Below are positions 32,008 through 51,091 of a stretch of 52,842 bases of DNA, piece after piece. The first letter of the stretch is position 1. Each line of letters opens with the position of its first letter. Under the pieces are notes generated by a model. The model did no database searches. It was not told where the DNA came from and saw only the letters and a list, made by a program, of their open reading frames with translations. Source of the DNA: Methanobacteriota archaeon (GTDB lineage Archaea > Undinarchaeota > Undinarchaeia > Undinarchaeales > Undinarchaeaceae). The translations under genes and the position numbers were made by a program. Location of the stretch: contig NZBN01000003.1 in NCBI GenBank assembly GCA_002687935.1, positions 1-52,842 on the forward strand. Reading direction: 5' to 3'.

Positions 32008-34209
32008 TTAAGGGAAACCCCCGCCTCCAGGTAGAGTTATTGGACATCCATCTGTATCAACTACAGTTCCTGTCTGAGTATTTGGACAGTCATCGTTCAG
32101 GTCATTTACTCCATCTCCATCTGAGTCCGTCCAAAGATCACAGGCGTCACCAATTCCATCATCATCAGAATCATCCTGATTCGTATTTGATATTAGTACA
32201 CAATTATCTGTATCATCATTCACGTAATCTCCATCACTATCCCTTTCAGAAGCGCAGCATCCAAGGAAGCTTCCACTCTGCGCTGGATTACAATCTGGAG
32301 GAGAGTTCTGACACTGGTCAAGATCATCAAATATACTGTCTCCGTCACTATCTCTCTGGTATGCAGCACAGCCATTACTATCAACAGAGGAGCCTGCTAT
32401 TGTATTTGGACAGTCATCACCAACGTCGTCAACTCCGTCATTATCATCATCACTATCTTCTGTGGAATCCTTACATCCATCACCATCTCTGTCATACCAG
32501 CCACCAGACCAGCCGCTTTCTCCTGTTGGACAGTCGTCTATAGCATCCGGAATTCCGTCATTATCATCATCCAGATCTTCTGAGTCCTTACATCCATCAT
32601 TGTCGTGGTCTGAACCTGAAGAACTTCCATCAGGACACTGGTCAACATCATCATTCATTCCATCTCCATCAGTATCGCGCTGAGATGGGCTACATCCACA
32701 GGTGAGTGGGTTGCTTACACACCAAGTGAGTCCAGTTACACCATTTGTATTGGAGCAGTCATCTATAATATTCGGAACTCCGTCATTATCCTCATCTTCT
32801 AATTCAGCAAGAGCACATCCAAATATTTGGGAAAGAGCACTATTTTCTATAATATCATTAACATACTGCGCAGGTGTATTCGGACACATATCATCAACGT
32901 CGTCAACTCCGTCATTGTCATCGTCGGTGTCACAATCATCTCCTTGGCCGTCATTGTCGTGGTCCTCTTGGTTCGCGTTCGCAATATTCGGACAATTATC
33001 CACATCATTTGCTACTCCGTCTCCGTCATTGTCTATGAGTCCGTCACAGGCGTCACCAATATCATCGTTATCTGCATCAGCTTGATTACTATTCGCATTA
33101 TTTGGACAGTTATCCTGACCGTTATTCACGCCATCATCGTCAATATCTGGGTCACAGGCGTCTCCAAAACCATCTCCGTCCATATCTGCTTGATTTTCGT
33201 TATAATTATCTGGACAGTTGTCATTACTGTCAGATGTTCCATCATTATCACTATCTTCACATCCATCATCGGCGACATTAGTTCCTTCTACAGTTCCTGA
33301 GCAACTGTCAGTTGAATCCAAGACTCCGTCGCCATCATCATCATCGTCACAGGCGTCTCCAAGACCGTCACCGTCAGTGTCTGTCTGTGCGCTGTTTGAA
33401 ACTGCAGGACAGTTGTCATTACTGTCAGAAAGCCCATCTCCGTCACTATCCGTACAACCATCTTCCGAAACAGTTTTTCCTAATGTAGTATAGTCGCACT
33501 GGTCAGGCTCATTAAGAACTCCATCATTGTCAATATCTGGGTCGCAGGCGTCTCCTTTACCGTCTCCGTCATGATTTGTCTGATCTAGATTGTAATTAGA
33601 TGGACAATTATCATCTTGCCAATATATTCCGTCGTTATCTCCATCAGGGTCACAATAATTCATTGGATTTCTTACAACAATTGTCATTGATTCAGGAGTT
33701 TCCACTGTAACGCCGGTTCTCCGAATCTCCAATGCCGCAGGATCCTGCTCCTGATCGAATAATACAATTATTTCAACAGAATCTGTTAGTTCCCTAACAA
33801 AAATGTCCGAAGCCCACGGAACTCCATAAAGGACAGTAGCGAATTTGCTATTGTATTCTGTTATAAAGCCATTTACAGCCTCTTTCATAGCTGGCTTGTT
33901 GTAGTCCAGCCGCGTGAAAAGCTCACTTATCGTGTAAATATCCCTCGCTGGGTCGCAACTCTCTCCAAGTTCGTAGAGTGTGTAGCTTCTAATAGATTCT
34001 CTTACAAGATTATCATAAAATACACTCTTTCCCTCAAGCTCCTGCATTCCGCCGATTATAACTTCTTTAACGATGCCTTTTGCTTCTATTCCTGCCGCAT
34101 TCTTCTTTGCCATATATGTAACAGTCACTTCGGCGCTCAGAAGCAGAGCTATAAGGAAGAACTGGAGGAATATCAGCTGAGCTTTTCTGTTCTTCAGAAG
34201 ATTTATCAT
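32008..34209 (-). CDS. Pilin-like protein (class III signal) with a thrombospondin type-3-like Ca-binding repeat array
   Basis: MINLLKNRKA|QLIFLQFFLIALLL; about 23 D-x-D-x-D-G motifs with DNCP/DACD. Confidence 0.85.
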   Translation of the reverse strand: MINLLKNRKAQLIFLQFFLIALLLSAEVTVTYMAKKNAAGIEAKGIVKEVIIGGMQELEGKSVFYDNLVRESIRSYTLYELGESCDPARDIYTISELFTRLDYNKPAMKEAVNGFITEYNSKFATVLYGVPWASDIFVRELTDSVEIIVLFDQEQDPAALEIRRTGVTVETPESMTIVVRNPMNYCDPDGDNDGIYWQDDNCPSNYNLDQTNHDGDGKGDACDPDIDNDGVLNEPDQCDYTTLGKTVSEDGCTDSDGDGLSDSNDNCPAVSNSAQTDTDGDGLGDACDDDDDGDGVLDSTDSCSGTVEGTNVADDGCEDSDNDGTSDSNDNCPDNYNENQADMDGDGFGDACDPDIDDDGVNNGQDNCPNNANSNQADADNDDIGDACDGLIDNDGDGVANDVDNCPNIANANQEDHDNDGQGDDCDTDDDNDGVDDVDDMCPNTPAQYVNDIIENSALSQIFGCALAELEDEDNDGVPNIIDDCSNTNGVTGLTWCVSNPLTCGCSPSQRDTDGDGMNDDVDQCPDGSSSGSDHDNDGCKDSEDLDDDNDGIPDAIDDCPTGESGWSGGWYDRDGDGCKDSTEDSDDDNDGVDDVGDDCPNTIAGSSVDSNGCAAYQRDSDGDSIFDDLDQCQNSPPDCNPAQSGSFLGCCASERDSDGDYVNDDTDNCVLISNTNQDDSDDDGIGDACDLWTDSDGDGVNDLNDDCPNTQTGTVVDTDGCPITLPGGGGFP
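32040..33700 (-). repeat. TSP3-like protein repeat region (DxDxDG...DxCP / GDACD)
   Basis: Recurrent DSDGDG, DDDNDG, DNCP and GDACD units; degenerate at the DNA level (TCACAGGCGTC recurs). Confidence 0.85.
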
Positions 34210-34913
34210 ACTATAAGTTGCCCACCTCCATACCTCTGCGGAGTGAAGGGATCTTCGTATCCACTCGTTCCCGTTGTTCCACTCGTTCCTGATGTTCCTG
34301 TTTGAGCCTGTTGAGCCGCCGCCTGTTCTGCTACATTAACAAGGTTCCAAGTTTCGAGCTTCAGCCGGATTCTGTCTATGTTTGTAGAAACTACAGTTTC
34401 AAAATAAGGAACAGTAAATTCACCAACCCTCTTTGTTTTCATCTGCAGGGTTTCGGTTCTCCTCAAATTAGGCAAGTACTGGATAATTTCACCAATCTCT
34501 CCTTCTTTTGGTGCTGTACTCTGCAGTTCCCACATTACCGAATCACCGGTATCCATAAACCTTATCTCAAATTTGAAATTGGTCCACCGTCCGGAAAGTA
34601 TCGTCTCAAGTTTATCCAGCCCAACATCCTGCGCCCACTGCCTGTCAGCTCCCATTCTACTGATTATCTGAGCTCCGGTCATCTCTAGATCCTCATCATA
34701 AGAACTCAGTATTGCGCTCATCATCATCCTCGCGGCTGCTCCCCTCTCAGCTTCCTCAAGAACGACTTCCGTTGACTCTATACTTGAGGGAACATTTACT
34801 GAAAATACTACAACTATCGAAACTGCGATAACTATGGTACCGACGACTGCCATTATATCTGCTGTTGTTGGCTCTTCTACACCCTTTTTATTTCTGAAAA
34901 TTCCCCTTCTCAT
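34206..34913 (-). CDS. Pilin-like protein with class III signal
   Basis: MRRGIFRNKKG|VEEPTTADIMAVVGTIVIAVSIVVVF; C-terminal GTSGTSGTTGTSG linker. Confidence 0.75.
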   Translation of the reverse strand: MRRGIFRNKKGVEEPTTADIMAVVGTIVIAVSIVVVFSVNVPSSIESTEVVLEEAERGAAARMMMSAILSSYDEDLEMTGAQIISRMGADRQWAQDVGLDKLETILSGRWTNFKFEIRFMDTGDSVMWELQSTAPKEGEIGEIIQYLPNLRRTETLQMKTKRVGEFTVPYFETVVSTNIDRIRLKLETWNLVNVAEQAAAQQAQTGTSGTSGTTGTSGYEDPFTPQRYGGGQLIV

Positions 34914-35752
34914 CAGTCGAGCGACCTCTCTGTTGTGCTTGTGTAAATCGTTCTCTCATAAACTAATGCATACTCATTAGACGGAATTAATATTTCAACT
35001 TCATTACCGTTGTAGTATCCAAGAACTTCAACATCTATAGAGTATCTGTTATATTTGGAAAAGCTAGGGATGTCTCTTCCATGTTTATACACAGTAGGTG
35101 TAAAGTCTCGTGTTTTTTCTCCATACCAGGTTTCGTTCAGCTTGAAAGCACTTGGAAATGATGCACCTAGCTCATTATACTCATAAGTATAATCTGGTTC
35201 AGTACTCTCCTTCTCATACCAATTCTCTGTAACTCTGAGATTCATATCACAGTCCGCAAAACTGTCAAATGTCAAAAAGAGTTTACCACCCTGCACTCTT
35301 GGATTAGTTCTAAATGCGAGACTTCCAACTTCAACTTTCAGAATCCCTTTTTTATGTCCTGAACTCCCTTTGTCTATTGTCACCGGGATGCTCGCATAAG
35401 TTGGAAAATCACAATTAACTATCGACTGAATTCCCTGCGTAGCTGACGCAGAATTATCTAAATCCTTAATCTCTGCTTTCCAGATGTAGGGATATTTCTG
35501 AATACAGTTACCTTTATCAGAAGCTCCAGACCATTCAACCACTCCTTTAGCAATCGAGCCGGGTACCCTTAGACACTCATCTGAAGATATAAGAGTTTCA
35601 AGAATTTCAGTCGCAACGACACTTGATGACTCAACTTGAACTTGCTTGACAAGACCAACACTCGTTATTCCGACCATAACAAATAGACCAGAAAATATAA
35701 CCATCTCTGCCATCCAAAGCAGGGCATTACTCTGAGCCTTCCTGCTCATCAT
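34913..35752 (-). CDS. Pilin-like protein with class III signal
   Basis: MMSRKA|QSNALLWMAEMVIFSGLFVMVGI; ATGA overlap with the upstream gene places the start at 35752. Confidence 0.75.
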   Translation of the reverse strand: MMSRKAQSNALLWMAEMVIFSGLFVMVGITSVGLVKQVQVESSSVVATEILETLISSDECLRVPGSIAKGVVEWSGASDKGNCIQKYPYIWKAEIKDLDNSASATQGIQSIVNCDFPTYASIPVTIDKGSSGHKKGILKVEVGSLAFRTNPRVQGGKLFLTFDSFADCDMNLRVTENWYEKESTEPDYTYEYNELGASFPSAFKLNETWYGEKTRDFTPTVYKHGRDIPSFSKYNRYSIDVEVLGYYNGNEVEILIPSNEYALVYERTIYTSTTERSLD

Positions 35753-36906
35753 CTTCGCATTCCCTCCAGCCACAACTGTTCTTCGGCTTCCCAGAGTGCC
35801 TGAGATTCTGAAAGATACATATGGTTTGCAACATTGAAATTAGGATTCTTATCTTCACTTTCCCCGCTCAAGTCAGTTGAATAGTCCCCTGCTCCTTCTT
35901 CGAAAGTCCATAGTCCAACCAAAGAATCTTCTGCAAATTCCTCGTTTGCAGCTTCTTCTATTTCATTTACAGTAAGGGCTCTTTTCCATATTGCAAGGTC
36001 GTCAACTCTCCCTTTAAAGTAAGGTCCGTTGAGATCGTCAGCAATGTCAGCTGTTCCGAGTGCTATCCAACTTTCCATTCCTCGCATATCTCCAAGGTCA
36101 GCAGAACTGCTCCAGAATTTTTCACCGTCTCTGTATATTATAAAAACTCCATTTCCTGCATCATAAACAAAGGCCAGGTGAACCCACTCCCCCCCTTCAA
36201 TAGAAATACCATTTTCACTTTCTGCTGGGAAAATTTTCTCGTCCATACAAATGTCTCTGCCCGGTCTCACAACAAAACGACACTCCTCATCACTTTCGCA
36301 GTAGACTCTCCATCCATCACAATGTACCTCATATGTTTCACAATCTTCACTTGTGCAGCTATACCATTCTCCAAACCTCACAGGACCTGCATTCTCCTGA
36401 CCAAAATCATCAACCCTCATCCAAAAAGCAAGCGTTGTAGATGCCCCAAAATTATAATCAGGAGTTACTGTAACAACGTTCCAAGCATAAAGAGGCGTTC
36501 CGTCAAATCCAATACCCCTCTCCCGTTCCTTGTGAATCAGCATGATGTTGTTGTTCCTACAGTCAACAGAAGAACTTTCAACAGAAACATCACTTCTGTC
36601 TATATATTGGTATCTGGCTTTTTCACTTTCATCACCTGCTTCCACCATTAAATAAGTGTCATCCTCCGAAAGCGAGAAAACATAGTCCTTTATACAGTCA
36701 TTCGCCACGGATATATCTGAATCCGTCATTAACATGCTGTCGATTACGCCGCCATAGATTGTCGCCCAGCGTATAAGGTCTCCGCTGCTGGCTCCTGCAA
36801 TCTGATAAGCACCAAGACCGATTCCTGCTCCTAGAACCAAAATACCTACAAGCATAACTCCAAGTGGAACTCCTCCGCCTTGAGCCTTTCTGGACCTGAG
36901 CGTCAT
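35749..36906 (-). CDS. Pilin-like protein with a LamG/concanavalin-A-like domain
   Basis: MTLRSRKA|QGGGVPLGVMLVGILVLG; TLAFWMR...EWVHLAFVYD...IYRDG...FKGRVDDLAIWKRALTVNEI...LVGLWTFEEG. Confidence 0.85.
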   Translation of the reverse strand: MTLRSRKAQGGGVPLGVMLVGILVLGAGIGLGAYQIAGASSGDLIRWATIYGGVIDSMLMTDSDISVANDCIKDYVFSLSEDDTYLMVEAGDESEKARYQYIDRSDVSVESSSVDCRNNNIMLIHKERERGIGFDGTPLYAWNVVTVTPDYNFGASTTLAFWMRVDDFGQENAGPVRFGEWYSCTSEDCETYEVHCDGWRVYCESDEECRFVVRPGRDICMDEKIFPAESENGISIEGGEWVHLAFVYDAGNGVFIIYRDGEKFWSSSADLGDMRGMESWIALGTADIADDLNGPYFKGRVDDLAIWKRALTVNEIEEAANEEFAEDSLVGLWTFEEGAGDYSTDLSGESEDKNPNFNVANHMYLSESQALWEAEEQLWLEGMRR

Positions 36907-36957
36907 ATTTGCTAAAGGGTCTCAGAGCATTTAAACTTAATCAAGAAGGAAAATAGC

Positions 36958-37155
36958 TTAGAACAGGAGCTTCGTCAGATAGTCAGGAACTTGTTTTTGA
37001 AATTCTTCTGATGTTCCTGAAACAGTTTCTCCAATTGTTCCAAACATCACATCAGTGCTTCCCAGGAAAAAGGTAAGAATTATAGCAAGCGTTATTGCGA
37101 GTAATATTATGACTATGACCAGTTGAAGTGTCAGCTGTATTCCACGCTCATTCAT
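36958..37155 (-). CDS. Small pilin
   Basis: MNERG|IQLTLQLVIVIILLAITLAIILTFFLG; ATGA overlap places the start at 37155. Confidence 0.75.
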   Translation of the reverse strand: MNERGIQLTLQLVIVIILLAITLAIILTFFLGSTDVMFGTIGETVSGTSEEFQKQVPDYLTKLLF

Positions 37156-37475
37156 CGGATTTCCCATACGCACCTTTTATTTTCTCCATTTATAACATCT
37201 CCTTCTACAGACCTGCACTTCGCGTATGTCAGGTCACAGCACACTGAATCATCACAGTCTATATTTGGATCACCGGGGTAGCAGGAAGGAATTGCTGAGA
37301 GAACTCCGCCGATGTCTGTAGTGTCATTTGTTGCCAGCTTTCCAACTGTTCCTATACTACCTGCACTCTCCCTTGCTTCGTTAAAGAAGAAGTTAGATAC
37401 GAGAAAAACAACAAAGACAGCCAAGGCAAGTACTACAAGCATATTCATTCCAATAGAGACACCTTTTTTACTCAT
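37152..37475 (-). CDS. Small pilin with a Cys-rich tip
   Basis: MSKKG|VSIGMNMLVVLALAVFVVFLV; six Cys at the C-terminus. Confidence 0.8.
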   Translation of the reverse strand: MSKKGVSIGMNMLVVLALAVFVVFLVSNFFFNEARESAGSIGTVGKLATNDTTDIGGVLSAIPSCYPGDPNIDCDDSVCCDLTYAKCRSVEGDVINGENKRCVWEIR

Positions 37476-37852
37476 TCTACCCTCTGCCAGCTACATCCAC
37501 TTACTTTTATACAATTTGCTGAATCCAAATCCCCACAAGTCACAGTTCCGCCTGTGCATTTAAAGTTTGACCAAGTACATCCAAGATCTTCGCAAAGTGC
37601 TCTATTTCCTATGTTTGTGCAGGTTGGGTCTCCATTATCAGCAACACACTCAGTTTCAAAACTCCTTATTTTTTCACTTATTCCAATACTCTCAACAGCC
37701 CTCCCTGTCTGTCCGACAGTTTCTTCAATCTGACTCTGTGGCGCTTCCTTTCCTGTTATTAATATCTTCATAACTATTCCAAAGGCGACTACGAGCATTA
37801 CTATGGTTATTACAACTCCTATTGAAAGCGAAATTCCTTTTGTGTTTTTCAT
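37472..37852 (-). CDS. Small pilin with Cys-rich repeats
   Basis: MKNTKG|ISLSIGVVITIVMLVVAF; C-terminal CTNIGNRALCEDLGCTW...CGDLDSANCIKVSGCSW. Confidence 0.8.
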   Translation of the reverse strand: MKNTKGISLSIGVVITIVMLVVAFGIVMKILITGKEAPQSQIEETVGQTGRAVESIGISEKIRSFETECVADNGDPTCTNIGNRALCEDLGCTWSNFKCTGGTVTCGDLDSANCIKVSGCSWQRVE

Positions 37853-37865
37853 TTAATTATTGAAC

Positions 37866-40800
37866 TCAGCCGAAGCCCCCTGCCACTCCGTCTCCGCCAA
37901 CAACATAACCATCTCCACTACCTCCAGATGTTCCACCACCTGGTGAGACTCCACCACCTCCAAGACCGCCACCACTTCCTGTTCCAAACACGGAACAAGA
38001 GTCAGCAGTAGTTTTTGGAGTGAATGTTCCACCTGAGCTTGAAGAACTGCCACTTCCTCCTCCTAGTCCGAAACCTCCACTAAAACCACCTGTATCTGCT
38101 CCTGTTATAGTTCCTCCTGAAGTTTCTGAAGAGTCACATATCGTATCTTCATCTCGAGCTGTAAATTGAACGCAATCATCACTAAACTTACTCTTACAGT
38201 ATCCTATATCACATCCTCCACAAGGTCCAGTCCCTATGGTCATCTTTCCATAATAGTATGTTGTGCTTGTTAGTGTGTCACCAGCGCATACTGTGTTGTT
38301 CGGACATGTGTAAGTGAAGTCCCCACAGTCTGCGTTAACATCATCGGCCCAATTTCCACTGTTGTCGCTGTTGCTCGGGCACTGTATTTCTGTCGGGCAG
38401 TTGTCAATATAATTTGAAAGATATACTCTGTCTCTTCTTCCAGAGTCAAATGTTCCTGCTGATCCTGCTTTCACACGCTTCATAAGCTTGTCTGTGTCAA
38501 TTTCTGTCTGCTCAGCGACTCCTGCGCAGTCTCCTATTATGTTGCCGCACTCTGCCGGAACTTTGTAGATTTCATCGGGAGTGTAGTCTTGCTTGAGGCA
38601 GGCAAGCCTGCGATTGTCTGAACAACTTGCGTCAGCTTTAGAGAATGTGGAGCCGATGTCTACTCCATCAGCCTTACCATAAGTTCCGCCTGTCCCTAAA
38701 GTTCCTGTCCACGAAGTATCTGAAAGCAACTGTTCACAAGCCTCACCAGAGTATCCTCCACTACTGTCAGTCCCTGTCCAGAATTCATTGTCTGAAATGT
38801 ATGTTCCGTCTTCGTCGTAGGAGAAAGTTCTGCTGGCTAGATATCCAACATTTGCTCCTCCATAATAATTTCCATTATTATTCCTACTGTCAGAGGAGGA
38901 TCTATCTTGCACTGTTCCTGCTATCCATCCACCAAATTCGTAGACTGCTCCGAGATTTTCTGTATAATCTGTCCATCCCCATACTCCGTTTGTGTACTCA
39001 CCATAGGATTCAAAGATCTCTTCTGCCTCATCATTTAATGCGCCGTCATAAGAATAGAAGCTATAGTAAGGATTCTTTGTAATTCCCCCTACTCCTCCGC
39101 GACCAAGTTTTTGAAGCATATAATATTGTTCACGCCCAAGCTCAGTAGTCCATATTGTTATGGAGTCTATCATTCCTTTGAAATGATTTGAACTTGTGGG
39201 GAGGGCTTTCATCGCTCCTATATACAAATCCTCATCATTTGTCGAAAGTGTTGCATCAATTCCAAAAGGTCTTGAGGAACTTGTATCTGTGGAGTATCTA
39301 TCAGGTTTGTAGTAGTCCCACTCCGAAGCGTCTGATACATAGAGTGTCATCAACTGAGGACTTACAACAAATGTGAAATAGTGCCATTTATCTGTGGAAA
39401 TATCAAAACTAGAAGTTACCGTTTTCGTTGTAGTAGTTCCCCCTACTTCTCCTGATGCATTTAATTGTAGTTCGTCATTTGAATTAATTGCCAATTCATA
39501 ATTTATTTCACGATTTCCCTGTGAGCTCTTTGACAGTATAACTCTATATCCTGATGAAGGCTCTTCAAGCCAGAACCACCCAGTTACCGTAATCGCAGTG
39601 CTGGATTCAATATTGTTACTGTCCGGAATCTGTACATATCCACTGCTTCCGTCGAGCGAAAGAACATCATCCTCTAGCCATTTATATGCTGTACCAAAAG
39701 TGTCTCTTAGTCCGCCGTAAGTTATACTCTCTCCATAAACATTCTTAGCAGTTTCGGCTCTAACTCTACCCTTTAAATCATTTTCAAGATCGTTTTCTTT
39801 GTAGCTCAGAGCTGCAATCCATCTTCCTTCAAGACCGAGTGAGGAACTCTCCGCCTCCTGCTGGCAGATATAATCTGCTGATTCTATTCCATCTTCAAGA
39901 TTAAGACCAACTTCAAGCCTGCACAGAGGCTTCGTCAAATCATTTTCATATGGCTGGGTTGCCAAAGTTTCAGGATCCGAATTCTCACAATAGCCGGAGC
40001 CTCCTGCCCCAATATTACACAAGTAATCTGTGGAGCAGTCGCTTTGTGATGTACAGACCTTCTTCACAAAATAACTTGTTTCACATGCACTCTTTGAAAG
40101 GCTATGGCAGGCCGCTGGACTTTCTGAAACAAGAACACAGTCACCGAAAGTTTCACAACTCTCGACAGATATTCTTTCACAGTCAGTTGATGTAGGTGTT
40201 CCTACATTTCCACTACCTAAATCTAGGTTACTTCCGGCTCCTGCTGCCGTTCCTCCTAATTCAGTTCCGATAACGAAGCCTGTCGGAGCTCCCTGGAATC
40301 CATCTCCTCCTGAGCCTAGACCGGTTCCCGGACTTTCATCTCCTCCTGTTCCTGGCCCATCTCCCTCAGGTAGAGCAGGAGCTTCTCCCTCTCCACCAGT
40401 TCCACCAGAACCCTTATTCTTACAGGAGGTGTAAGGTATAGGTACGCAGCTGTAAGAGTCTGATGAAATTTCACCACTTGTTCCTTCAGACAGAAAGAGT
40501 GCATTCAGACCTATACTAATCTCTGGCGTGCTTAGTTTATCTGGTATTTCAGAATAAGCAGGAGTATCCCATTCTTCCGCTTCCCTGAGGGCGACCTTGG
40601 GATTAGGGGAGCCTGGCGTTTTTGCCCCTTTTCTGAACTCACTACACGCGACATATTGCCGTCCGCAGTAGTCTAATGATTCTCCGTATGAAATTTCCGG
40701 AGTATCGAAGTAAACAACACTTTCCTCCCAGGATTCTGTAATAGGTCTCTCTGGAGCCTCCCCAGCGCGCTCGAATCCTTCTGGACACTCTACATTGGAG

Positions 40801-42326: not shown

Positions 42327-42700
42327 TTTGCCACCACTGTACACCCGCTAACTTTCTGACACTGGGACAATGTCAGATCTGAACAAGTTACTGTTCCTCC
42401 ACAATAGCTGTCATCCCATTGACAAGTATTTATTGAATTGCAAACTGCCTGTGTCAAGCCTTCACAATCGGCGGCTGAAATACCACTTTTCCTATCGCAG
42501 TCATAACCTTGTCCAAGAATTCTTTCACGGATGTCCAGTTCTTCTATACCTTCTGCCGTTTCCGTGCCCGCCTCGCTTGCGGCAGCCGCCGGATCACGGA
42601 ATCCACCTGTAAAAAATTGCACAACAAAAAAGAGTACCATAACTGCCAGAGCCAGCGTCACAATTGTGGTAATCGACAGTCCTTGAGCCTTGCGTGCCAT
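42323..42700 (-). CDS. Small pilin with Cys-rich repeats
   Basis: MARKAQGLSITTIVTLALAVMVLFFVV; CEGLTQAVCNSINTCQW...CGGTVTCSDLTLSQCQKVSGC. Confidence 0.82.
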   Translation of the reverse strand: MARKAQGLSITTIVTLALAVMVLFFVVQFFTGGFRDPAAAASEAGTETAEGIEELDIRERILGQGYDCDRKSGISAADCEGLTQAVCNSINTCQWDDSYCGGTVTCSDLTLSQCQKVSGCTVVAN

Positions 42701-42722
42701 AAAAAAGCCTAATCTCCGAAGA

Positions 42723-42730
42723 TTTAAATA
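42723..42730 (-). promoter_or_regulatory. TATA-like box for the 42700 sub-operon
   Basis: TATTTAAA on the minus strand, ending about 23 nt before ATG 42700. Confidence 0.5.
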
Positions 42731-42750
42731 GCTACCGCTGCTTGTCTGTT

Positions 42751-42773
42751 AAAAAAAAGAGGGCGAGCCCTCT
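42751..42773 (-). terminator. Hairpin plus T8 terminator after the candidate major pilin
   Basis: Minus strand AGAGGG-CTCG-CCCTCT followed by TTTTTTT, starting 6 nt after the stop at 42780. Confidence 0.75.
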
Positions 42774-42779
42774 ATCTAA

Positions 42780-43163
42780 TTAGTTTGTAGCGCAAGTTGG
42801 AGCTAGAGGACCTTCAATGGATGCGTTGGCGGCGATTCCAGTACAAACATACCATTCTCCGTCTATTCTTCCATCACCGTCCAAATCAATATCAGCTCTC
42901 GTCGCCTTAAGTTTGTCATCCCAAACATCACCAGGAGCTATATCTGGTCTTCCTGCGTTTGCATACTGTGTACAGAAAGAATCACAAGTGATTCTTGCGG
43001 CTTCAAGACCTGACCCTGCTCCTGTTGTTGCTGCCCCAAATAAACCGGCGAACTTTGTCCAGCCGCCAGTCGTAAATCCAAGAACTATGAATACGACAAA
43101 GACAGCCAGAGCAATTATCACCAGCATATTTATTGACAGACCTTGTCCCTTTTTATTGGCCAT
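42780..43163 (-). CDS. Pilin, candidate major subunit
   Basis: MANKKG|QGLSINMLVIIALAVFVVFIVLGF; four Cys; DIDLDGDGRID motif; has its own TATA box and terminator. Confidence 0.82.
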   Translation of the reverse strand: MANKKGQGLSINMLVIIALAVFVVFIVLGFTTGGWTKFAGLFGAATTGAGSGLEAARITCDSFCTQYANAGRPDIAPGDVWDDKLKATRADIDLDGDGRIDGEWYVCTGIAANASIEGPLAPTCATN

Positions 43164-43184
43164 AATCCGAATAAAGCGTTACTC

Positions 43185-43192
43185 TTTATATA
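43185..43192 (-). promoter_or_regulatory. TATA box of the candidate major pilin
   Basis: Purine-rich AGACAAGG followed by TATATAAA, ending about 22 nt before ATG 43163. Confidence 0.6.
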
Positions 43193-43199
43193 CCTTGTC

Positions 43200-43379
43200 T
43201 TAGTTCAGAACATCAACAGCCTGTCCGCTGAGAGTCTTGAACTTTCCTATTAATATGAATCCAAGCATAGCAAGCATCATCGCTATGACTGCGCCCACCA
43301 CTATCCACAGTGGTTCAATATCTCCCTTCCTAGAGCGTATCGCGTCTATCGCCCTGTATTTTATGAATTCCTTCATCAT
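43200..43379 (-). CDS. Tiny pilin, 59 aa (not in the ORF track)
   Basis: MMKEFIKYRAIDAIRSRKG|DIEPLWIVVGAVIAMMLAMLGFILIGKFKTLSGQAVDVLN; ATGA overlap with the upstream ORF. Confidence 0.75.
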   Translation of the reverse strand: MMKEFIKYRAIDAIRSRKGDIEPLWIVVGAVIAMMLAMLGFILIGKFKTLSGQAVDVLN

Positions 43380-43519
43380 CCTGGCAGTGCTCCTATCGCT
43401 CCTTTAGCAAGCTCGTAGAATTTAAATGCTATCATTAGAGCAACCATTACTAGAATTGCACCTATTATGAACTGCAGGGTAAATTCAATCCCTTTCTTGT
43501 TTTCAATTACACTTTTCAT
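43376..43519 (-). CDS. Tiny pilin, 47 aa (not in the ORF track)
   Basis: MKSVIENKKG|IEFTLQFIIGAILVMVALMIAFKFYELAKGAIGALPG; TAATG overlap with the upstream gene. Confidence 0.78.
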   Translation of the reverse strand: MKSVIENKKGIEFTLQFIIGAILVMVALMIAFKFYELAKGAIGALPG

Positions 43520-44694
43520 TAGTATTCCTCAATATCATATGTCGGTACAGAGCTCAGGTCCATAATTGCCATGGTTTCAGCTGTATCTATGAAGAGTTGA
43601 GTATAGAGAACCTCAGGCTCCCCAACTTTTATTGTTTTCGGGAATCCGCGATTCCACCTGATATTGTCTTTGTCAAATAGAAATGGAGCGAAATAAGCGC
43701 TTACTGGATGACTATATCCACACCCTCTATAGTCATTGGAGAATCCTTCGCCCCCCCATGAAAGAGTTACATGTCGTAATATCGATGAGCCCGTGTCAGT
43801 TTTTTCTGTGTAATCATAGTAACTATTCGGAAGTCCCTGTGCTCCAGTTGAACCAAGTTCCTGCTTAACAAAGCACTTACAGTCTTCACTTACTGGCCCT
43901 TCTTCAAGTACTGAGCACTTCGCCAGCATTGCAAGTGTCATTACCTGCTCGTCCATATAATTTGTTTTTACATAACACCTGTCTTCAAATTGATGATACC
44001 AGGCTGTTGCAATTAAACCATCGTTTGTCATAATTGTGTATTTATCTGTTTTCCACTGACCTTCAGTTCCGGGAACATCAATCCTTTCAGTTTCCGCGTC
44101 CCAATAAGCAAACCAATTTGTGCACCTTCCCGGCAATGGCATCTCGGGACCTTCGTTGGAGAGGACAACACTTATTTTAAAAAGTGGTATTCCCCAGCCG
44201 GCTGCGTATCCATAATAAGTTGTACCTCCGTGAAGGTAATGGAAGGCTTGTGAAGCCCTCCTGTAAATACAGGCTCCTGCTTCATAGGAGCTTCCGGCGC
44301 AGGTCACTGGCGTTTCTTTACAGAGCTTTGGGAATGCTGCTGATGTACCTTCCCTCAGGGCTTCGTAGACTGCTCTTTCTGTTGCATTAAGAGTCTCAAT
44401 GGCATCTCCAAAAGCCCAACCTTTTATACAATTTCCAGTAGAGTACAGCCAATTGCAATCCGGCTTCGAAAAATGGGTTTCATTAGTTTTTCCAATAACT
44501 GTTTCCATAACATTGGCTCTGACTGAAAGAGAACCGTAGCAAACACTTCCTGTTGCTTTTCCTTCTGTAGCACTCAGGAATGTTTCTGCCGAGCCCATCA
44601 TCACAACAGCAAGTCCCATAAGAACTGCCATACTTACTACAATTGATATTAATGCACCCTTTCTCTGTCTCATAATTTCCGATTGTTTTCTCAT
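43519..44694 (-). CDS. Large Cys-rich pilin-like protein (paralog A)
   Basis: MRQRKG|ALISIVVSMAVLMGLAVVMM; collinear similarity to the next gene. Confidence 0.78.
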   Translation of the reverse strand: MRKQSEIMRQRKGALISIVVSMAVLMGLAVVMMGSAETFLSATEGKATGSVCYGSLSVRANVMETVIGKTNETHFSKPDCNWLYSTGNCIKGWAFGDAIETLNATERAVYEALREGTSAAFPKLCKETPVTCAGSSYEAGACIYRRASQAFHYLHGGTTYYGYAAGWGIPLFKISVVLSNEGPEMPLPGRCTNWFAYWDAETERIDVPGTEGQWKTDKYTIMTNDGLIATAWYHQFEDRCYVKTNYMDEQVMTLAMLAKCSVLEEGPVSEDCKCFVKQELGSTGAQGLPNSYYDYTEKTDTGSSILRHVTLSWGGEGFSNDYRGCGYSHPVSAYFAPFLFDKDNIRWNRGFPKTIKVGEPEVLYTQLFIDTAETMAIMDLSSVPTYDIEEY

Positions 44695-44698
44695 ATTA

Positions 44699-45841
44699 TT
44701 ATACTTGCTTTATCTTAATGACATTCCCTTCTGAAATTCTTATTAAACGGAATAAAAGTATCTTGGAATTTCCTTCAAAAATTCCCTGCTGTCCCCCTGA
44801 ACTCCATTTTATCCTGTCTCCCCCTATGTCTGAAACATTGAAAATAAATGGTTCAGGCTCCGCTCCGCAGCCAACATAATTGCCTCCCCATATGTAATCA
44901 CTGAAAGCATCAGTTTTTATCACCGGAGAAATTCTTGCATTATCCTGAACACTTATTTCAGAATTCCCAAGACCGTTTGCATCAGAGTAAACAAGCTTTC
45001 CAGGTAATTCTTCCTTCACAAAGCAGATACATGCTCCGGATTCTGGACCTACTATACCCTCTCTGTCCTGGGCATTCATACATCTCTCCATCGCTGCGAG
45101 TATCATTGTTGATTCATCAACAAATGATACTGTAATATTGCATTTATTACTTACAGAGTTCCAAATCACTTTAGAATCTTCCACACTAGTGTCGATCCAC
45201 TCTGAACAGGAACCGTCCATAAGAAAGGTACCAGGTCCATTTACCTTAGCCGTAATTTCAAATATATCAAAATCTGTCACTGCATTTTCTGTTGAACCAT
45301 GAAGACTGTAAAAAGCGTTTATCGAAGCTTGGTAGAGGAAATAAGATAACTGGTCTGCATTCATTGCGACTTCCACCCTTTCTGTCTGCCTCCTTGTACA
45401 TCTATTAGGGAAGTTATCTGTCATGCTGTCAGTTATTAATGTAACTCTGTTTTGAAGACCTTCAAATCCACCTATCGTCGCATCAATCAATTCTATTTCA
45501 CCAGCTGCCTTGGATACTCTATATAAATTCTGAACAGTTTTCACTTGCCCATAGACAGGAATAAAGGCAACTGCAACGTCAGTCCATTCCATATCGGCAT
45601 CCTCCACAGCCTTCTCTCTATTTTCCTCAAGTTTTTTAAGAATTTCCTGAAAACTAACCTGCATCTTCGCTTTCTGTCCTGTTCCAGAATAGCAGTAAGT
45701 TCCTGCACTTTCAAGCTCAGCCTTTGGCAGAAGATTTCCAAGAAAGAAGAAAATTCCAACAAGCAGACCAAGCCCCACAACTCCGGCAATAACTATCATC
45801 ATCCATCTCTGGGCAGTCGCACCCTTTCTGTTTGTTATCAT
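44699..45841 (-). CDS. Large Cys-rich pilin-like protein (paralog B)
   Basis: The ATG at 45841 gives MITNRKG|ATAQRWMMIVIAGVVGLGLLVGIFFF. Confidence 0.78.
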   Translation of the reverse strand: MITNRKGATAQRWMMIVIAGVVGLGLLVGIFFFLGNLLPKAELESAGTYCYSGTGQKAKMQVSFQEILKKLEENREKAVEDADMEWTDVAVAFIPVYGQVKTVQNLYRVSKAAGEIELIDATIGGFEGLQNRVTLITDSMTDNFPNRCTRRQTERVEVAMNADQLSYFLYQASINAFYSLHGSTENAVTDFDIFEITAKVNGPGTFLMDGSCSEWIDTSVEDSKVIWNSVSNKCNITVSFVDESTMILAAMERCMNAQDREGIVGPESGACICFVKEELPGKLVYSDANGLGNSEISVQDNARISPVIKTDAFSDYIWGGNYVGCGAEPEPFIFNVSDIGGDRIKWSSGGQQGIFEGNSKILLFRLIRISEGNVIKIKQV

Positions 45842-45843
45842 AG

Positions 45844-46482: not shown

Positions 46483-46519
46483 ATTCTGATTAAAGATATA
46501 GACCTTAAATTCTTTCTGG

Positions 46520-46663
46520 TTAACTTATCATCCGTGTATATATGATGTACATCGTGGCGACTGTTGCAATCACTGCGAGTATTTTTATTACAAGAAGAAT
46601 GGTTTCGTCAATATCCCCTTTTCTGTTCCAGAGCCTACATTGTGAATATGTCAAACCTTCCAA
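46520..46663 (-). CDS. Tiny pilin, about 47 aa (not in the ORF track)
   Basis: (M)EGLTYSQCRLWNRKG|DIDETILLVIKILAVIATVATMYIIYTRMIS. TTG start at 46663 (after GGGGTGA) or at 46654; overlaps the platform gene 3' end. Confidence 0.6.
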   Translation of the reverse strand: MEGLTYSQCRLWNRKGDIDETILLVIKILAVIATVATMYIIYTRMIS

Positions 46664-48746
46664 AGAGAATCACCCCCGAAATCATCGCTATTGAATAAAC
46701 AATTACTGATACAATCAGACTCTTTCCAATCATATTGTTTCTGTAAACTTCGTCCTTTCCATTTTCTACACCGCTTATCAAGATGGAGAGAAGAACAGTA
46801 ACTTGTATTACATAAATTCCGACAACCATCTGCATCATCTCTGCAGGTATAGCATTTGCAACATCGAAGAAGCTCCCCTGGAAAATATTTCCAACTCCGG
46901 TTGTTCCTAGGACTCCAGTAGCTGATTCAGAGCCCTGCAAAGATCCAACCTTTGTGCTAAGTTCGCCGAGTATTCTCGTTAGAAGTATGTCAAGTGAAAC
47001 TATTATTCCGGCAATAAAAGAAGTCAGGAACTGCGCCTGAAACTTCATAGAGCTTACAGTCGTACCAAGAAGCTCCTTTATGTTACTCTTTACAACTTTC
47101 ATATTCTTCAGGTACTTGCTTATTGTTCTCATCGTGCTGGAAGTCGCACGAAGACCTTTCTTAGTTCCTTCCAAAACGATTTCCATCACCGTTCTGATGA
47201 GGTCAGAAGGGTAGTAGACTAAAGCACCTTCTTCTTTATTGAAAACAGCCTTTTCAAAGGGCATTCCCATAACTACCATATTGTCATTTATCTTTCTGAA
47301 GAATTTCTTAAGAGGTCCTTTTTTCAGGCTTCGTTCTGCCTCTCCAATAGCATGCTCTATCGGACTCCCCATATTCAGTCTGTCGCTCAAATCATAGAGG
47401 GCTACATCAAGTCCATCTTCAAGCGTTTCAAGTTCCATTCTTGCAGTGAGCTTCTGCCGCGAGCTGCCTATAGTGTATATTATTACTCCAAGAGCTATTC
47501 CCCAGATAAGAGTCATCGACTGTAGTATATTCATAAAACTGTAGCTTTCCGGAATTGAGAATATTTGCATTATTCCTGGAAAGCCTACCAGAAGTGCAAT
47601 CGCAATAGATACATAAATGAGGGGAACTTGCGTCACTTTACCGTTTCTGACTATTGCATAATGACCCTTCTTCGGCATTCCGGGTATTGTATCAACGCTT
47701 GCATGGGAGAAAGTTCCCGGGCGCTTACTTAGAATGAGTCGCATGAAGAAGAAAACTATGATTGGAAGAACTATATCGTAACTGATAAAGAGTGTTCTTG
47801 CCTTCATACCACCTGAAAGAATTGTCGTCATTATAGGAGCGAGAACCAGACCCATTACTGGAAGAACAATTGAAAGCATGTAAAGAACAATAACTGGCAT
47901 TGTCATTCCGCGGGCGAAATCCTTCATCATTTCAAGATTTCCCTCAAGCATCACATTCGATGCCTGATCAAGCGTTGCAAGTCTTTCCTTCTCATTTGCT
48001 ATGTTCACTGAGCCTCTGATAATCTCTATTGAAGTCGAAAAATTCTTGTTTTTATTCTGCCACTTTTCTGAATATTCTTTCAGAGCATCATCCATTGAGG
48101 AATAGGTTCCACTTTCCAGCTGCCATACAAGTCTGTTTAGGTCTCTTCCAAGAGGACTTCTGAGGTGCTTCCCGGCAAACATAACTGCTCCTTCTAGCGT
48201 TGGCGTGTTTCTCAGGTATATGACAAGATAGGTTATCGCAAGTGGCATGGAGTTCATAACTTGCATTGTTCTATTGCTGGCAACGAAGTTTGGATACTTT
48301 TGTATCATAACAAAGGAGATCAGACCGAGAAGCATCATCATCAAAGCCGTATTGAATGATATGAACATATAGGCAAAACCAGCAATTGACCACAAAAGAA
48401 AAGCCGCAAGTCCAAAACTCACAACTTCTTTGGCTTTTATCTTATATTCTATATAATCTAAAATTCCCTGCGTCTTTATAGCGCTTTCTTCTCCAATATT
48501 TATTTGGAAAATCTTCCCAGATTGCTTGCAGGCTTTTTCGAAAAATGTTTTTAGTTGCTCTTGCTCTTCCTGAGTTTTCTTAAATTCTGCATACTCCTTA
48601 GAATAAAGACCAAATTTATTTGTTCCCAATTCTTCAACTAATTCCTCTTTTTTTGCATCCTCCTCTTGAAGGAGTTTCCTTATCGTTTTCTGCTGCTCAA
48701 GAATTGGATGAGTTTTATCTTCTTTCTTCTTTCCAAAAATCGCCAT
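46635..48746 (-). CDS. Type IV pilus platform protein (TadB/TadC, FlaJ-like; two T2SSF-like halves)
   Basis: Two cytoplasmic helical blocks (MPLAITYLVIYLRNTPTLEGAV...; LYDLSDRLNMGSPIEHAI...) each followed by TM clusters; overlaps the ATPase stop. Confidence 0.85.
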   Translation of the reverse strand: MAIFGKKKEDKTHPILEQQKTIRKLLQEEDAKKEELVEELGTNKFGLYSKEYAEFKKTQEEQEQLKTFFEKACKQSGKIFQINIGEESAIKTQGILDYIEYKIKAKEVVSFGLAAFLLWSIAGFAYMFISFNTALMMMLLGLISFVMIQKYPNFVASNRTMQVMNSMPLAITYLVIYLRNTPTLEGAVMFAGKHLRSPLGRDLNRLVWQLESGTYSSMDDALKEYSEKWQNKNKNFSTSIEIIRGSVNIANEKERLATLDQASNVMLEGNLEMMKDFARGMTMPVIVLYMLSIVLPVMGLVLAPIMTTILSGGMKARTLFISYDIVLPIIVFFFMRLILSKRPGTFSHASVDTIPGMPKKGHYAIVRNGKVTQVPLIYVSIAIALLVGFPGIMQIFSIPESYSFMNILQSMTLIWGIALGVIIYTIGSSRQKLTARMELETLEDGLDVALYDLSDRLNMGSPIEHAIGEAERSLKKGPLKKFFRKINDNMVVMGMPFEKAVFNKEEGALVYYPSDLIRTVMEIVLEGTKKGLRATSSTMRTISKYLKNMKVVKSNIKELLGTTVSSMKFQAQFLTSFIAGIIVSLDILLTRILGELSTKVGSLQGSESATGVLGTTGVGNIFQGSFFDVANAIPAEMMQMVVGIYVIQVTVLLSILISGVENGKDEVYRNNMIGKSLIVSVIVYSIAMISGVILFGRFDIFTM

Positions 48747-51040
48747 TATTGACCCTCAGCTGTTTCTTCCGTCTGCCCCTTTCCTCTAATATCATTCTTT
48801 GCCCAGGTTTTCCAGCGTTTGAATATTTCTGCATTGTCAAAAGCTCCAAGCTCACGGTTAACATCATCTGAAATTATATGGAAATAGTTATTTGCCTTAC
48901 CAACAAATGGGGCTTCCATTATATCTCGCCTGTTTGAAGTCCTTGAAAAGTCAACTATCGCACTCATTACATCAGAGCGGAGTTTTATATTTTCATATAT
49001 TGCATCCCAGTTTCCTGCCCATTCCCTTACTCTTGAACCAATGTTCATGAGCATCGGCGAATCTCCATTCAGAAATGCATCACTTGCGTTTAACTGATCT
49101 TTCTTCGCATCATAGCCCATAAGCTCTATAAAGCCGTTCTCCTTCTTAGGATCATCAATCCAGTCCTTTCCGACTTCTGTAATATTCACTATTCTTCTAA
49201 ATCTGTGCAGACCGTCGGCACTTCTTATCGGAGCCGGCATAACTATCAAATCCGTTGCTTTGAAAGAAGTAGACGGAACTTTCAGGTCATTGACAACACG
49301 GTCCCAAAGTCCATAGGGATTGTCTGCGTGAATAGTTCCTCCTGTAAAGTTTGACAGAGCTCCAATACGCATAGCTTCATAAAGTGCTCGTGCCTCCTCG
49401 GAACGAACTTCACCGACAATCAGACAGGAGTCTCCCAATCTGAGAGCTGTCCTGATTCCTGCCTCGGCTGATATTTCGGTCTCCAGTTTAGTTATGGCTG
49501 AACGAACTTTCAGGGGAACAACATTAAATCCAAGAGACCTCATATCCTCTGCAGGAAGTTCAAGAGTGTCTTCTACAGTTATGATTCTGTACTTCTTCAT
49601 AATCTGCATCATCGTTGCTCCTAAAACAGAGGTTTTTCCACTTGACCTTGGTCCTGCAAAAAGTACACTTCTTCCAGCATCAACGACGAACCACAGAAGT
49701 CCAGCTGAAAGCGCATTCATTGTCCCGTTTTCCATAAACAAGGGATAGGTCCAGGGATTGCTCCTATGTCTTCTGAATGCAAAGGCAAGTCCGTAAGGGC
49801 TGAGATTCTTGGTTATTATTGCAACACGGGCTCTTCCTCCAGGGACAATTGTTGAAGTATCTAGAATGGGGTTTGCCTCATCCAGTGGTCTGCCCGATTC
49901 CATCCTGAATCTGGCTGCCATTGCTGCCGCATCTTCCCGTGTCGGTATTATATTGGTAACACATTCTTCCCATTTAGAGTGCAGAAGTTTGATTGGAAGT
50001 TCCCCCACTGGGGCATTGATATAAAGGTCCTGCAAATTCGGGTCTGCAAGAAATATTTCAATAATTCCGAGACCTGTTGTATATCTTGTCAGAATCTGCG
50101 CTAGTGATTTAATTTGAGAATGACTTAGTTCTATTTTTCTTTCAGCGGCAACAGTTCCAATAAGGTCCTCAGCAACTCGTTCGAAATATTCCCTTGTCTG
50201 GTCTGTGAATTTTGTTGATGAAGGCTTATAGCCGACCATAACTCTGCGAGCAAGTCCGAGAGCCATATACTGGTCTTCCGGAAGCTGGAATTCAGGGGGA
50301 ATTATGTGGTAGTAGTTCTCTGTCTTCCCCGGTATTTTATATATCTCAATATTGACATCCCCAAGAATTGTATAAGCATCAATTAATTCTCCCTTTGCAG
50401 GAGGTTTTACCATGAAGCGAGTCAGTGTAAAATTAGGTCTGATTACAGGAACAAAAATTTCTTCGTAAATATGCCTATCGCCTGGACTGATTTTCCCAAC
50501 AAGAGGCATTACTCTCTTAATCAATGTCGTTTTTTCAAGATAATTCTGTATTACAAGAAGCACATCATTAACGAAATATTCATAGTCCTTTCTTGCCACT
50601 TCAAACTGAATGCTCTTCAGTTTCCTCTGATAGGACTGAAGTTCGGCGAGAACTGTAAGATATGCCGCCACTGGATCTCGGCGCATTTTATCAAGAATCA
50701 AATCCTCAACAAACTTAAAGCGGTGTGGTGCGTACTTGTCTAGTGCCGTGCTGGTGGTTTTACTTTTTGTCAGTATATTTTCCTCTTTCAATAAAAGGTC
50801 TATTACACCTGCAATTTCTGCGAGAATTCCAGTCTGCCTTTTAGAATATTCATATTCATAGGCCTCTGCAATAACAACTCTGCTCACATTTCTAACTTGT
50901 ATAATCGCATCTATAACTCTGGACATACATTCTGGGTCGTCTTCGATAGAAGGAGAATAAGGACATCCGAGCCAGTTGAACCTAATTATTGTCTCATTTC
51001 CTTCTTTCTGAACCTCATAACTGCACGCCTTGGCCACCAT
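48746..51040 (-). CDS. Type IV pilus / T2SS assembly ATPase (VirB11/TadA-like) with a long N-terminal extension
   Basis: Walker A GPRSSGKT; Asp box TVEDTLEL; LRLGDSCLIVGEVRSEEA; GTIHA. ATG 51040 is the likely start. Confidence 0.93.
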   Translation of the reverse strand: MVAKACSYEVQKEGNETIIRFNWLGCPYSPSIEDDPECMSRVIDAIIQVRNVSRVVIAEAYEYEYSKRQTGILAEIAGVIDLLLKEENILTKSKTTSTALDKYAPHRFKFVEDLILDKMRRDPVAAYLTVLAELQSYQRKLKSIQFEVARKDYEYFVNDVLLVIQNYLEKTTLIKRVMPLVGKISPGDRHIYEEIFVPVIRPNFTLTRFMVKPPAKGELIDAYTILGDVNIEIYKIPGKTENYYHIIPPEFQLPEDQYMALGLARRVMVGYKPSSTKFTDQTREYFERVAEDLIGTVAAERKIELSHSQIKSLAQILTRYTTGLGIIEIFLADPNLQDLYINAPVGELPIKLLHSKWEECVTNIIPTREDAAAMAARFRMESGRPLDEANPILDTSTIVPGGRARVAIITKNLSPYGLAFAFRRHRSNPWTYPLFMENGTMNALSAGLLWFVVDAGRSVLFAGPRSSGKTSVLGATMMQIMKKYRIITVEDTLELPAEDMRSLGFNVVPLKVRSAITKLETEISAEAGIRTALRLGDSCLIVGEVRSEEARALYEAMRIGALSNFTGGTIHADNPYGLWDRVVNDLKVPSTSFKATDLIVMPAPIRSADGLHRFRRIVNITEVGKDWIDDPKKENGFIELMGYDAKKDQLNASDAFLNGDSPMLMNIGSRVREWAGNWDAIYENIKLRSDVMSAIVDFSRTSNRRDIMEAPFVGKANNYFHIISDDVNRELGAFDNAEIFKRWKTWAKNDIRGKGQTEETAEGQ

Positions 51041-51091
51041 TTTTAACAAAAAGCTTTATTAATCGCACCGTTAAATACTTCTCGGTTAAAT

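Follow-up and report, generated by a model that had tools for sequence, protein, structure and literature searches.

Two conserved type IV pilus-like loci that include coiled-coil proteins have been described across cluster-2 DPANN archaea and Undinarchaeota, and several proteins of both loci were detected by proteomics in Ca. Nanohaloarchaeum antarcticus, the filament proteins (FlaF, PilA) being assigned in the figure of that work to Locus 1 only (Hamm et al., 2024; PMC11291902). Here, a locus of about 19 kb (positions 32008–51040, minus strand) from a member of the Undinarchaeales was analyzed, in which an assembly ATPase and a platform protein are followed by 15 genes whose products start like type IV pilins, with class III-type N-termini. 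The locus lies in a stretch of 52,842 nucleotides, referred to below as the window, which makes up most of contig 3 (NZBN01000003.1) of assembly GCA_002687935.1, a genome of 0.67 Mb and 86.6% completeness.

According to Sivabalasarma and Albers (2026; PMC13705601), the Nanobdellati (DPANN) seldom have ordered loci of this kind; the layout that they call "System 2" combines an extended ATPase and a lone platform gene with numerous pilins and large adhesins. Makarova et al. (2016) distinguished a subclade 4F, in which a coiled-coil protein occurs. For the Undinarchaeota, VirB11, TadC and prepilin peptidases are listed in the supplement of Dombrowski et al. (2020; PMC7414124), where a 757-aa ATPase of the Naiadarchaeales, apparently of the same family as the one studied here, is annotated as arCOG01818. 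Giant laminin G-like (LamG) proteins and a thrombospondin type 3 (TSP3) protein of the Undinarchaeota were already noted in the same article and read as extracellular-matrix proteins; the part of it available carries no mention of class III signals on them. Annotated pilin genes are reported as lacking in the Undinarchaeota (Xie et al., 2022; PMC9563170). Among bacteria, the class III pilin PilC of Streptococcus sanguinis carries a ConA-like lectin module, by which glycans are bound at the tip of the pilus (PMC9934059), and the type IV pili of Saccharibacteria, of the candidate phyla radiation (CPR), mediate episymbiotic attachment (PMC9894109).

Our analysis indicates that the locus probably encodes a type IV filament that serves in adhesion and includes modular adhesin pilins, and that would be the Undinarchaeales form of the DPANN Locus 2 machine with its subunits encoded behind the motor. 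Not described in the articles cited here are the pilin-type character of all 15 genes behind a Locus 2 motor, a candidate major pilin, and cargo that differs between families.

A Locus 2-Type Motor Followed by 15 Class III-Type Genes

Eighteen tightly packed, co-oriented genes occupy the locus (Table 1): those of the ATPase, the platform protein and a Yip1-family protein, and 15 whose products have at their N-terminus a short basic leader, closed by K/R-G/A ([KR/TE][KR][GA]), and then about 20 hydrophobic residues. A first-pass annotation, made from the sequence, had listed these parts with their coordinates, a leader tally of five RKA/Q, four KKG, four RKG, one TKG and one ERG, a size range of 47 to about 1490 aa, and TSP3, LamG and Cys-rich cargo. 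All of this held: the ATPase end at 51040 was exact, the largest product has 1492 aa, and the cargo was recovered with Pfam and by counting cysteines, the extracellular proteins of the locus being Cys-rich with 4–50 residues in even numbers. All 18 genes are under purifying selection, with ratios of non-synonymous to synonymous substitution (dN/dS) of 0.03–0.63 against a same-genus genome, so the open reading frames (ORFs) of 47–71 aa are real genes too. The parts of the type IV filament superfamily (T4F/TFF) that are recognizable are an ATPase, a platform protein, class III-type subunits and an A24 peptidase.

The ATPase matches PF00437 at 49.5 bits (cut-off 24.9) and has intact Walker A (GPRSSGKTS), Asp box (EDTLELP), Walker B (LIVGEVRSEEA) and His box (GTIHA) motifs, with conservation across 14 orthologues. 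It carries a conserved N-terminal extension of about 280 aa. The best match in the PDB was 2OAP, the Archaeoglobus GspE-type ATPase (106 bits), and FlaI and CpaF were also matched there. The score against the NCBIfam model of the archaellum ATPase FlaI was 128.5 bits for a cut-off of 550, and that against BasE of the bindosome (Bas) was 74.4 bits for a cut-off of 1000. Moreover, no archaellin above the Pfam cut-off was found in the genome (ArlF, ArlG and ArlH were not searched individually), in agreement with the first-pass annotation, which had listed no archaellum genes in the window. The set of parts is accordingly that of a type IV filament machine other than an archaellum.

The platform protein scored 18.8 bits against PF00482 (T2SSF), below the cut-off of 25.2, and eight of its 14 orthologues match this family, the best with an E-value of 4e-9. 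When aligned with hhalign, its residues 139–312 resemble TadC1 of a second pilus region on contig 7 (93% probability) and its residues 433–597 resemble TadC2 of that region (50%). The profile of the platform alignment gave no match at E ≤ 1 against PDB sequences. In the congener (G002), the platform gene (L016 14968–17139) aligns as four tblastn pieces with overlapping query ranges, which suggests frameshifts or assembly errors in that genome.

Full-length orthologues of the ATPase-platform pair (36–66% identity) were found only in small genomes (0.5–1.2 Mb) among the 41 relatives searched. Relatives of the ATPase are present on at least 589 contigs of species-representative DPANN genomes; the 80 matches listed are full-length, with labels that include Undinarchaeales, Aenigmat-, Nanohalo-, Woese-, Pace- and Nanoarchaeota, and the Nanohaloarchaea genome CP046106 carries the ATPase at 47% identity. 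Additionally, seven other DPANN loci have homologues of the coiled-coil genes upstream of the long ATPase and divergent from it; those of coiled-coil protein B were found in this place in L035, L045, L052 and L054, and those of protein A in L034, L035 and L066. A minus-strand ORF upstream of the ATPase in the window (51043–51657, 204 aa) was discarded as spurious, being the antisense of the coiled-coil gene at 51092–51532.

A long CpaF/PilB-type ATPase adjoining a long TadC-type platform, the coiled-coil genes beside them and the taxonomic spread are features shared with Locus 2 of Hamm et al., and the window motor appears to fit that locus by anatomy and distribution, as distinct from gene-by-gene orthology to Nha. 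antarcticus. The proposal of the first-pass annotation that the machine was an undescribed one does not survive, given this fit of the motor and coiled-coil genes and the breadth of the ATPase family in DPANN. Unlike Locus 2 in the figure of that work, the present locus has 15 class III genes and a Yip1 gene behind the motor. The second type IV filament region of the genome (contig 7, ~67989–83608; L032) contains a thermosome gene, a coiled-coil gene, a 639-aa ATPase (T2SSE 125 bits), two separate TadC genes and three or four class III pilins, one of them archaellin-like (FlaF/PilA-like), which gives the only Arch_flagellin match of the genome (~29.2–29.5 bits, below the cut-off). With its thermosome gene, FlaF/PilA-like pilin and two TadC genes, it fits Locus 1. 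Two divergently oriented FG-GAP (integrin-like) proteins of 600 and 606 aa, with RKA class III-type N-termini, are encoded near it.

The locus also resembles System 2 (Makarova clade 2), since it combines an N-extended ATPase and a lone platform gene with several class III pilins, accessory proteins of the membrane and large adhesin-like proteins. However, System 2 is known mainly from Methanobacteriati, whereas this locus comes from a DPANN genome and is nevertheless ordered. By its anatomy, the locus may belong to System 2, with subclade 4F as an alternative home.

The Yip1 gene is the most constrained of the locus, with the lowest dN/dS (0.025). Only a few kb separate it from the long ATPase in G002–G007 and G009, which cover all sampled families of the Undinarchaeales, but the two genes are unlinked in G021, G035 and G036, the three further DPANN genomes in which both occur. 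From this distribution, it appears to be an order-specific accessory gene of the pilus locus. A Yip1 gene was also seen about 3 kb from a T2SSE-type ATPase in G023, an archaeon of 2.1 Mb that does not belong to the small-genome group (G023:C41:12310–12882 and 15461–16273), so the linkage of Yip1 with pili may extend beyond the Undinarchaeales.

Class III-Type N-Termini and the Prepilin Peptidase

The assignment of the 15 genes to class III is a match to a sequence pattern, and its specificity within the genome was evaluated on those ORFs of 100 aa or more that start with a hydrophobic segment, scoring [KR][GA] at the edge of that segment. The motif was present in nine of 10 such proteins of this locus and in seven of 10 of the contig-7 pilus region, compared with six of 128 (4.7%) in the remaining genome (Fisher p = 1.3e-9). 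The motif is therefore nearly confined to the two pilus regions of the genome. Two more LamG giants, from ORFs of 1149 and 1671 aa, are encoded outside the pilus loci, on contig 4 near 50978–51418 (minus strand) and on contig 7 near 134060–135544 (plus strand). Neither starts in the class III manner; an ordinary Sec-type signal is present in one, and the other is anchored in the membrane at its N-terminus.

As the first-pass annotation had noted, no A24 prepilin peptidase is encoded in the window; the search elsewhere in the genome that it suggested gave a single match, on contig 6 (G000:C6:67448–67795). This aspartic prepilin peptidase of 288 aa exceeds the cut-off of PF01478 with 37.9 bits and contains the WTD and GGAD aspartate motifs.

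Several points weigh against the reading of the locus as a filament built of these 15 proteins. The profile searches suggested in the first-pass annotation recovered LamG, TSP3, Yip1 and the ATPase, but none of the 15 proteins matched a known pilin family in Pfam or NCBIfam. The archaeal class III consensus appears to be fully matched by only about three of the 15 N-termini, and in four the G is directly followed by acidic residues (DIDE, DIEP, IEF, VEEP). The contig-6 peptidase is only weakly FlaK-like (20.8 bits, cut-off 330) and EppA-like (13.3 bits, cut-off 450), a mature helix of 31–40 aa may be too short for a filament subunit, and the AlphaFold2 (AF2) models are of middling confidence, with a predicted local distance difference test score (pLDDT) of 70 for the 127-aa protein and 66 for the 391-aa protein. 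The departures from the strict consensus and the missing family matches would also be expected if the products were ordinary N-terminally anchored surface proteins that happen to be encoded beside a pilus motor, the K/R-G/A motif not being a cleavage site. This explanation must contend with the rarity of the motif among the other N-terminal anchors of the genome, with a gene order that is conserved together with the motor across the order, and with the presence of a cognate peptidase, and we regard it as very improbable.

A Candidate Major Pilin and Other Class III-Type Proteins

Among the small proteins, the one of 127 aa is distinguished in several ways. Its gene is preceded by a TATA box of its own, TATATAAA, some 25 nt upstream of the ATG, and its stop codon is followed by a GC hairpin and then by the only T8 run on the coding strand in the 19 kb. 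Residues 1–50 are near-invariant across 16 relatives, while the C-terminus is hypervariable, with four conserved cysteines and a DxDGDG loop. The gene has the highest dN/dS of the locus (0.63) and is duplicated in tandem in the relative G006. Homologues are few (13 among 5.8 billion proteins). The TATA box, the T8 run, the conservation pattern, the dN/dS and the duplication make this protein a probable candidate for the major pilin.

The 391-aa protein belongs to a lineage-specific family with only 18 representatives among 1.84 billion proteins, in which eight cysteines are invariant. In its AF2 model, a long N-terminal helix (residues 3–74) is followed by a mixed alpha/beta region; no family or fold match was obtained for the protein, including with Foldseek against the PDB at E ≤ 0.001. 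Comparison with 48,161 chains using VIA-align gave best Z values of 5.4 (391-aa model) and 4.6 (model of the 127-aa protein), and these lists are uninformative because they are dominated by single long helices. The ESM Atlas provided no usable match for the 391-aa protein, the pLDDT of the Atlas model being 0.31.

A tiny class III gene (36–55 aa) overlaps or abuts the stop codon of the platform gene in 22 of the 55 evaluable DPANN loci (L034–L113), which belong to several phyla, and the start KKG/DV(D/E)RY is common to those of L041, L048 and L058. The 47-aa NRKG/DIDE gene of the window occupies the same platform-adjacent position, as do its counterparts in G005 and G006.

Very small helix-only subunits, Gln at position +1 in several of the proteins and an adhesive function, here inferred, recall the Epd pilus of Methanococcus maripaludis and the bacterial Tad-Flp pili ("System 1"). 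Substrates of EppA carry Gln at +1. Unlike System 1, which has two platform genes and a dedicated EppA, the locus has a single fused platform, and it is the contig-7 locus that shows the layout with two TadC genes.

Putative Modular Adhesin Pilins

Three of the larger proteins carry recognizable cargo. The 1492-aa protein contains two Laminin_G_3 domains (134 bits), one Laminin_G_2 domain and 50 cysteines, and its congener homologue is 78–89% identical with an indel near residue 430. The 385-aa protein contains one Laminin_G_3 domain (63.8 bits), and a homologue search with it returned a single near-identical cluster only. In the 733-aa protein, TSP3 (PF02412) was matched at 198.9 bits over seven Pfam stretches, with 13 DxDxDGxxDxxD motifs, and NCBIfam MtsC at 253 bits for a cut-off of 350. 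The architecture of the first two is an RKA/Q leader, a hydrophobic helix and LamG_3; in the third, the RKA/Q leader is followed by an N-terminal part of about 170 aa and then by TSP3. Since these N-termini are of the same pilin type as those of the small subunits, the LamG and TSP3 proteins are best read as putative modular adhesin pilins, as the first-pass annotation had proposed.

PilC and PilB of S. sanguinis are built in a comparable manner, with a class III signal, a short pilin moiety and a grafted module, and the PilC module and LamG both belong to the ConA-like superfamily (PMC9934059, PMC8179133). The streptococcal proteins are bacterial, have Glu5 and depend on different machinery. 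By contrast, the putative modular pilins of the window are far larger, reaching 1492 aa and two or three LamG modules, and one of them carries TSP3 repeats instead.

The large size of these proteins also bears on a second possibility, in which the motor would build a short membrane-proximal stub, comparable to the one proposed for the Sulfolobus bindosome or to a pseudopilus of the type II secretion system (T2SS), that holds the LamG, TSP3 and Cys-rich proteins as a contact layer on the surface. Eight of the 15 class III proteins are of 235–1492 aa and not pilin-sized, the four tiny subunits of 47–71 aa could build such a stub, and many non-pilin proteins with class III signals are described by Sivabalasarma and Albers (2026; PMC13705601) as "functionalising" type IV filament machines. 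However, the ATPase is far below the BasE cut-off, no substrate-binding domain was recognized in any protein of the locus (an ABC transporter was not specifically searched for), and the transcription signals and conservation pattern of the 127-aa gene are those of an abundant, exposed filament subunit. A surface stub is thus unlikely, and the filament reading is preferred.

Conservation and Variation Among Relatives

In the same-genus genome, the locus is syntenic gene for gene. The order is also kept in other families of the Undinarchaeales (G004 and G006, with 13–14 class III genes), where the motor is followed by the tiny pilin, Yip1, the 391-aa-type proteins, the 127-aa-type pilins and then variable cargo. 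This distal cargo is LamG and TSP3 in the window, GLUG and CARDB in G006 and TSP3_bac in G004, with the core unchanged. In other DPANN, runs of pilin genes are present in some loci and absent in others.

Contigs of four independent seawater metagenomes were compared with the locus as well, and the longer pieces were near-identical, with no convincing joint or replacement outside the TSP3 region. None of the listed sequencing runs that contain the locus is an RNA run. The repeat region itself (window 32400–33330) attracts heterogeneous repeat-containing contigs with small indels and loose ends, as is typical of repeat-rich sequence, and some of these contigs probably come from other organisms. 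The "interchangeable" repertoire of the first-pass annotation therefore holds only between families, where the distal cargo differs, and not as cassette switching, given the synteny within the genus and the near-identical metagenome contigs.

Table 1. Genes of the pilus locus and the divergent coiled-coil genes, in window coordinates. The slash in an N-terminal motif marks the predicted leader boundary.
Feature	Coordinates	Strand	Remarks
Coiled-coil protein B, 263 aa	51504..52295	+	Divergent from operon; weak coiled-coil family matches only
Coiled-coil protein A, 146 aa	51092..51532	+	Start 51 bp from ATPase start, opposite strand; from translation
Assembly ATPase, 764 aa from ATG	48746..51040	-	PilB/ArlI/VirB11 superfamily; PF00437; dN/dS 0.04
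Platform protein, 703 aa	46635..48746	-	Two TadC/PilC-type halves fused in a single gene
Tiny class III protein, 47 aa, NRKG/DIDE	46520..46663	-	Abuts platform gene; dN/dS 0.19
Yip1-family polytopic membrane protein, 212 aa	45844..46482	-	PF04893, 44.9 bits; dN/dS 0.025
Class III protein, 380 aa, RKG/ATAQ, 8 Cys	44699..45841	-	Paralogue of the 391-aa gene; dN/dS 0.22
Class III protein, 391 aa, RKG/ALIS, 12 Cys	43519..44694	-	Lineage-specific family
Tiny class III protein, 47 aa, KKG/IEFTLQ, helix only	43376..43519	-	dN/dS 0.07
Tiny class III protein, 59 aa, RKG/DIEP, helix only	43200..43379	-	dN/dS 0.13
Candidate major pilin, 127 aa, KKG/QGLSINMLV...	42780..43163	-	Own TATA box; dN/dS 0.63
Small Cys-rich pilin-like protein, 125 aa, RKA/QGLS, 8 Cys	42323..42700	-	Own TATA-like box; paralogue of the 126-aa gene
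Giant modular pilin-like adhesin, 1492 aa, RKA/QLTI	37866..42344	-	LamG/ConA-like lectin modules, Cys-rich and Gly-rich linkers; dN/dS 0.28
Small Cys-rich pilin-like protein, 126 aa, TKG/ISLS	37472..37852	-	dN/dS 0.08
Small Cys-rich pilin-like protein, 107 aa, KKG/VSIG	37152..37475	-	dN/dS 0.21
Tiny class III protein, 71 aa from GTG start, ERG/IQLTLQ	36958..37173	-	96% identical in congener; dN/dS 0.03
Modular pilin-like protein, 385 aa, RKA/QGGG	35749..36906	-	One LamG module; TATA-like box upstream
Class III protein, 286 aa, RKA/QSNA	34913..35773	-	No family (Pfam, NCBIfam)
Class III protein, 235 aa, KKG/VEEP	34206..34913	-	No family, no Cys
Modular pilin-like protein, 733 aa, RKA/QLIF	32008..34209	-	At least 13 thrombospondin type 3 calcium-binding repeats

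Genes Adjoining the Locus

The AMP phosphorylase gene deoA (window 30421–31947, minus strand) lies directly 3' of the pilus locus, and it is found at or inside the 3' end of the locus also in G004 and G006 (L017 14938–16443; L018 15098–16663), a class III TSP3_bac gene following it in G004. Inherited synteny could account for this adjacency, or else a connection with a DNA-feeding role of the pili. Dombrowski et al. (PMC7414124) put forward such a role for the Undinarchaeota, and the pilus would then take up DNA or other nucleic acids to feed nucleoside salvage; deoA is the only hint of it at this locus. A search of the genome for a ComEC-type channel gave none, although its absence is not proven because the assembly is incomplete, and no DNA-binding domain was recognized in any subunit. 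Moreover, the recognizable cargo consists of lectin-like and calcium-binding adhesion modules, and the deoA linkage may be plain inherited synteny in one order. Uptake and adhesion are not mutually exclusive, but as the function of this locus nucleic-acid uptake seems quite unlikely.

Beyond deoA, a glycosylation cluster of about 9 kb (window 20456–29623) encodes two GT2 and one AglH-like GT4 glycosyltransferases, a GT1, an NAD-dependent epimerase, a phosphomannomutase, a DUF354 protein and an LPG_synthase_TM protein, and it may act on surface proteins, including the pilins. A 317-aa protein is encoded at window 27695–28648 (minus strand), with an N-terminal signal-like segment, a CWB2 cell-wall-binding domain and a C-terminal winged-helix DUF7343/MarR-like domain, an odd mix for a secreted protein.

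Discussion

If the locus works as an adhesive filament, the 15 proteins would enter the membrane and have their leaders cut by the A24 peptidase, after which six of them would start with Gln. The ATPase-platform motor would then extract the subunits from the membrane and stack them via their N-terminal helices. The 127-aa protein would be the main subunit, forming the shaft, with the Cys-rich proteins of 107–126 aa and the helix-only proteins of 47–71 aa as minor, priming or base subunits. The 1492-aa and 385-aa LamG proteins and the 733-aa TSP3 protein would act as modular pilins, their lectin-like and calcium-binding modules being exposed on the filament and probably at the tip, so that the filament could stick the cell to the glycan-bearing surface of a partner cell or particle. 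Adhesion is favored over twitching because no retraction ATPase is evident.

A more detailed version of this model is advanced tentatively, as one that may well not hold in full. In it, the Locus 2 filament of the Undinarchaeales would be heteropolymeric, with a lineage-specific 127-aa shaft stabilized by disulfides and calcium, modular pilins (LamG, TSP3 and, in relatives, GLUG/CARDB) exchanged between families that set the specificity for partner or surface, and the tiny platform-adjacent gene providing a priming or base subunit common to the whole family.

The type IV pili of Saccharibacteria offer a functional analogy only, that of an ultrasmall, host-dependent cell type with a pilus for partner contact. 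Unlike the present system, they are bacterial, have retraction ATPases and serve in twitching, and no gene families are shared beyond the superfamily core.

The gain over previous work is incremental, since the motor and the LamG and TSP3 proteins had already been reported and modular pilins are established in bacteria, and a new class of machine is not proposed. Nevertheless, a life attached to other cells is assumed for DPANN archaea, and the attachment organelle is uncharacterized in most lineages. The locus gives ordered candidates for such an organelle: a probable major pilin, a conserved tiny platform-adjacent subunit and three putative modular adhesin pilins. The lectin-like and calcium-binding modules of these three are open to expression and ligand assays that do not require the organism to be cultivated.

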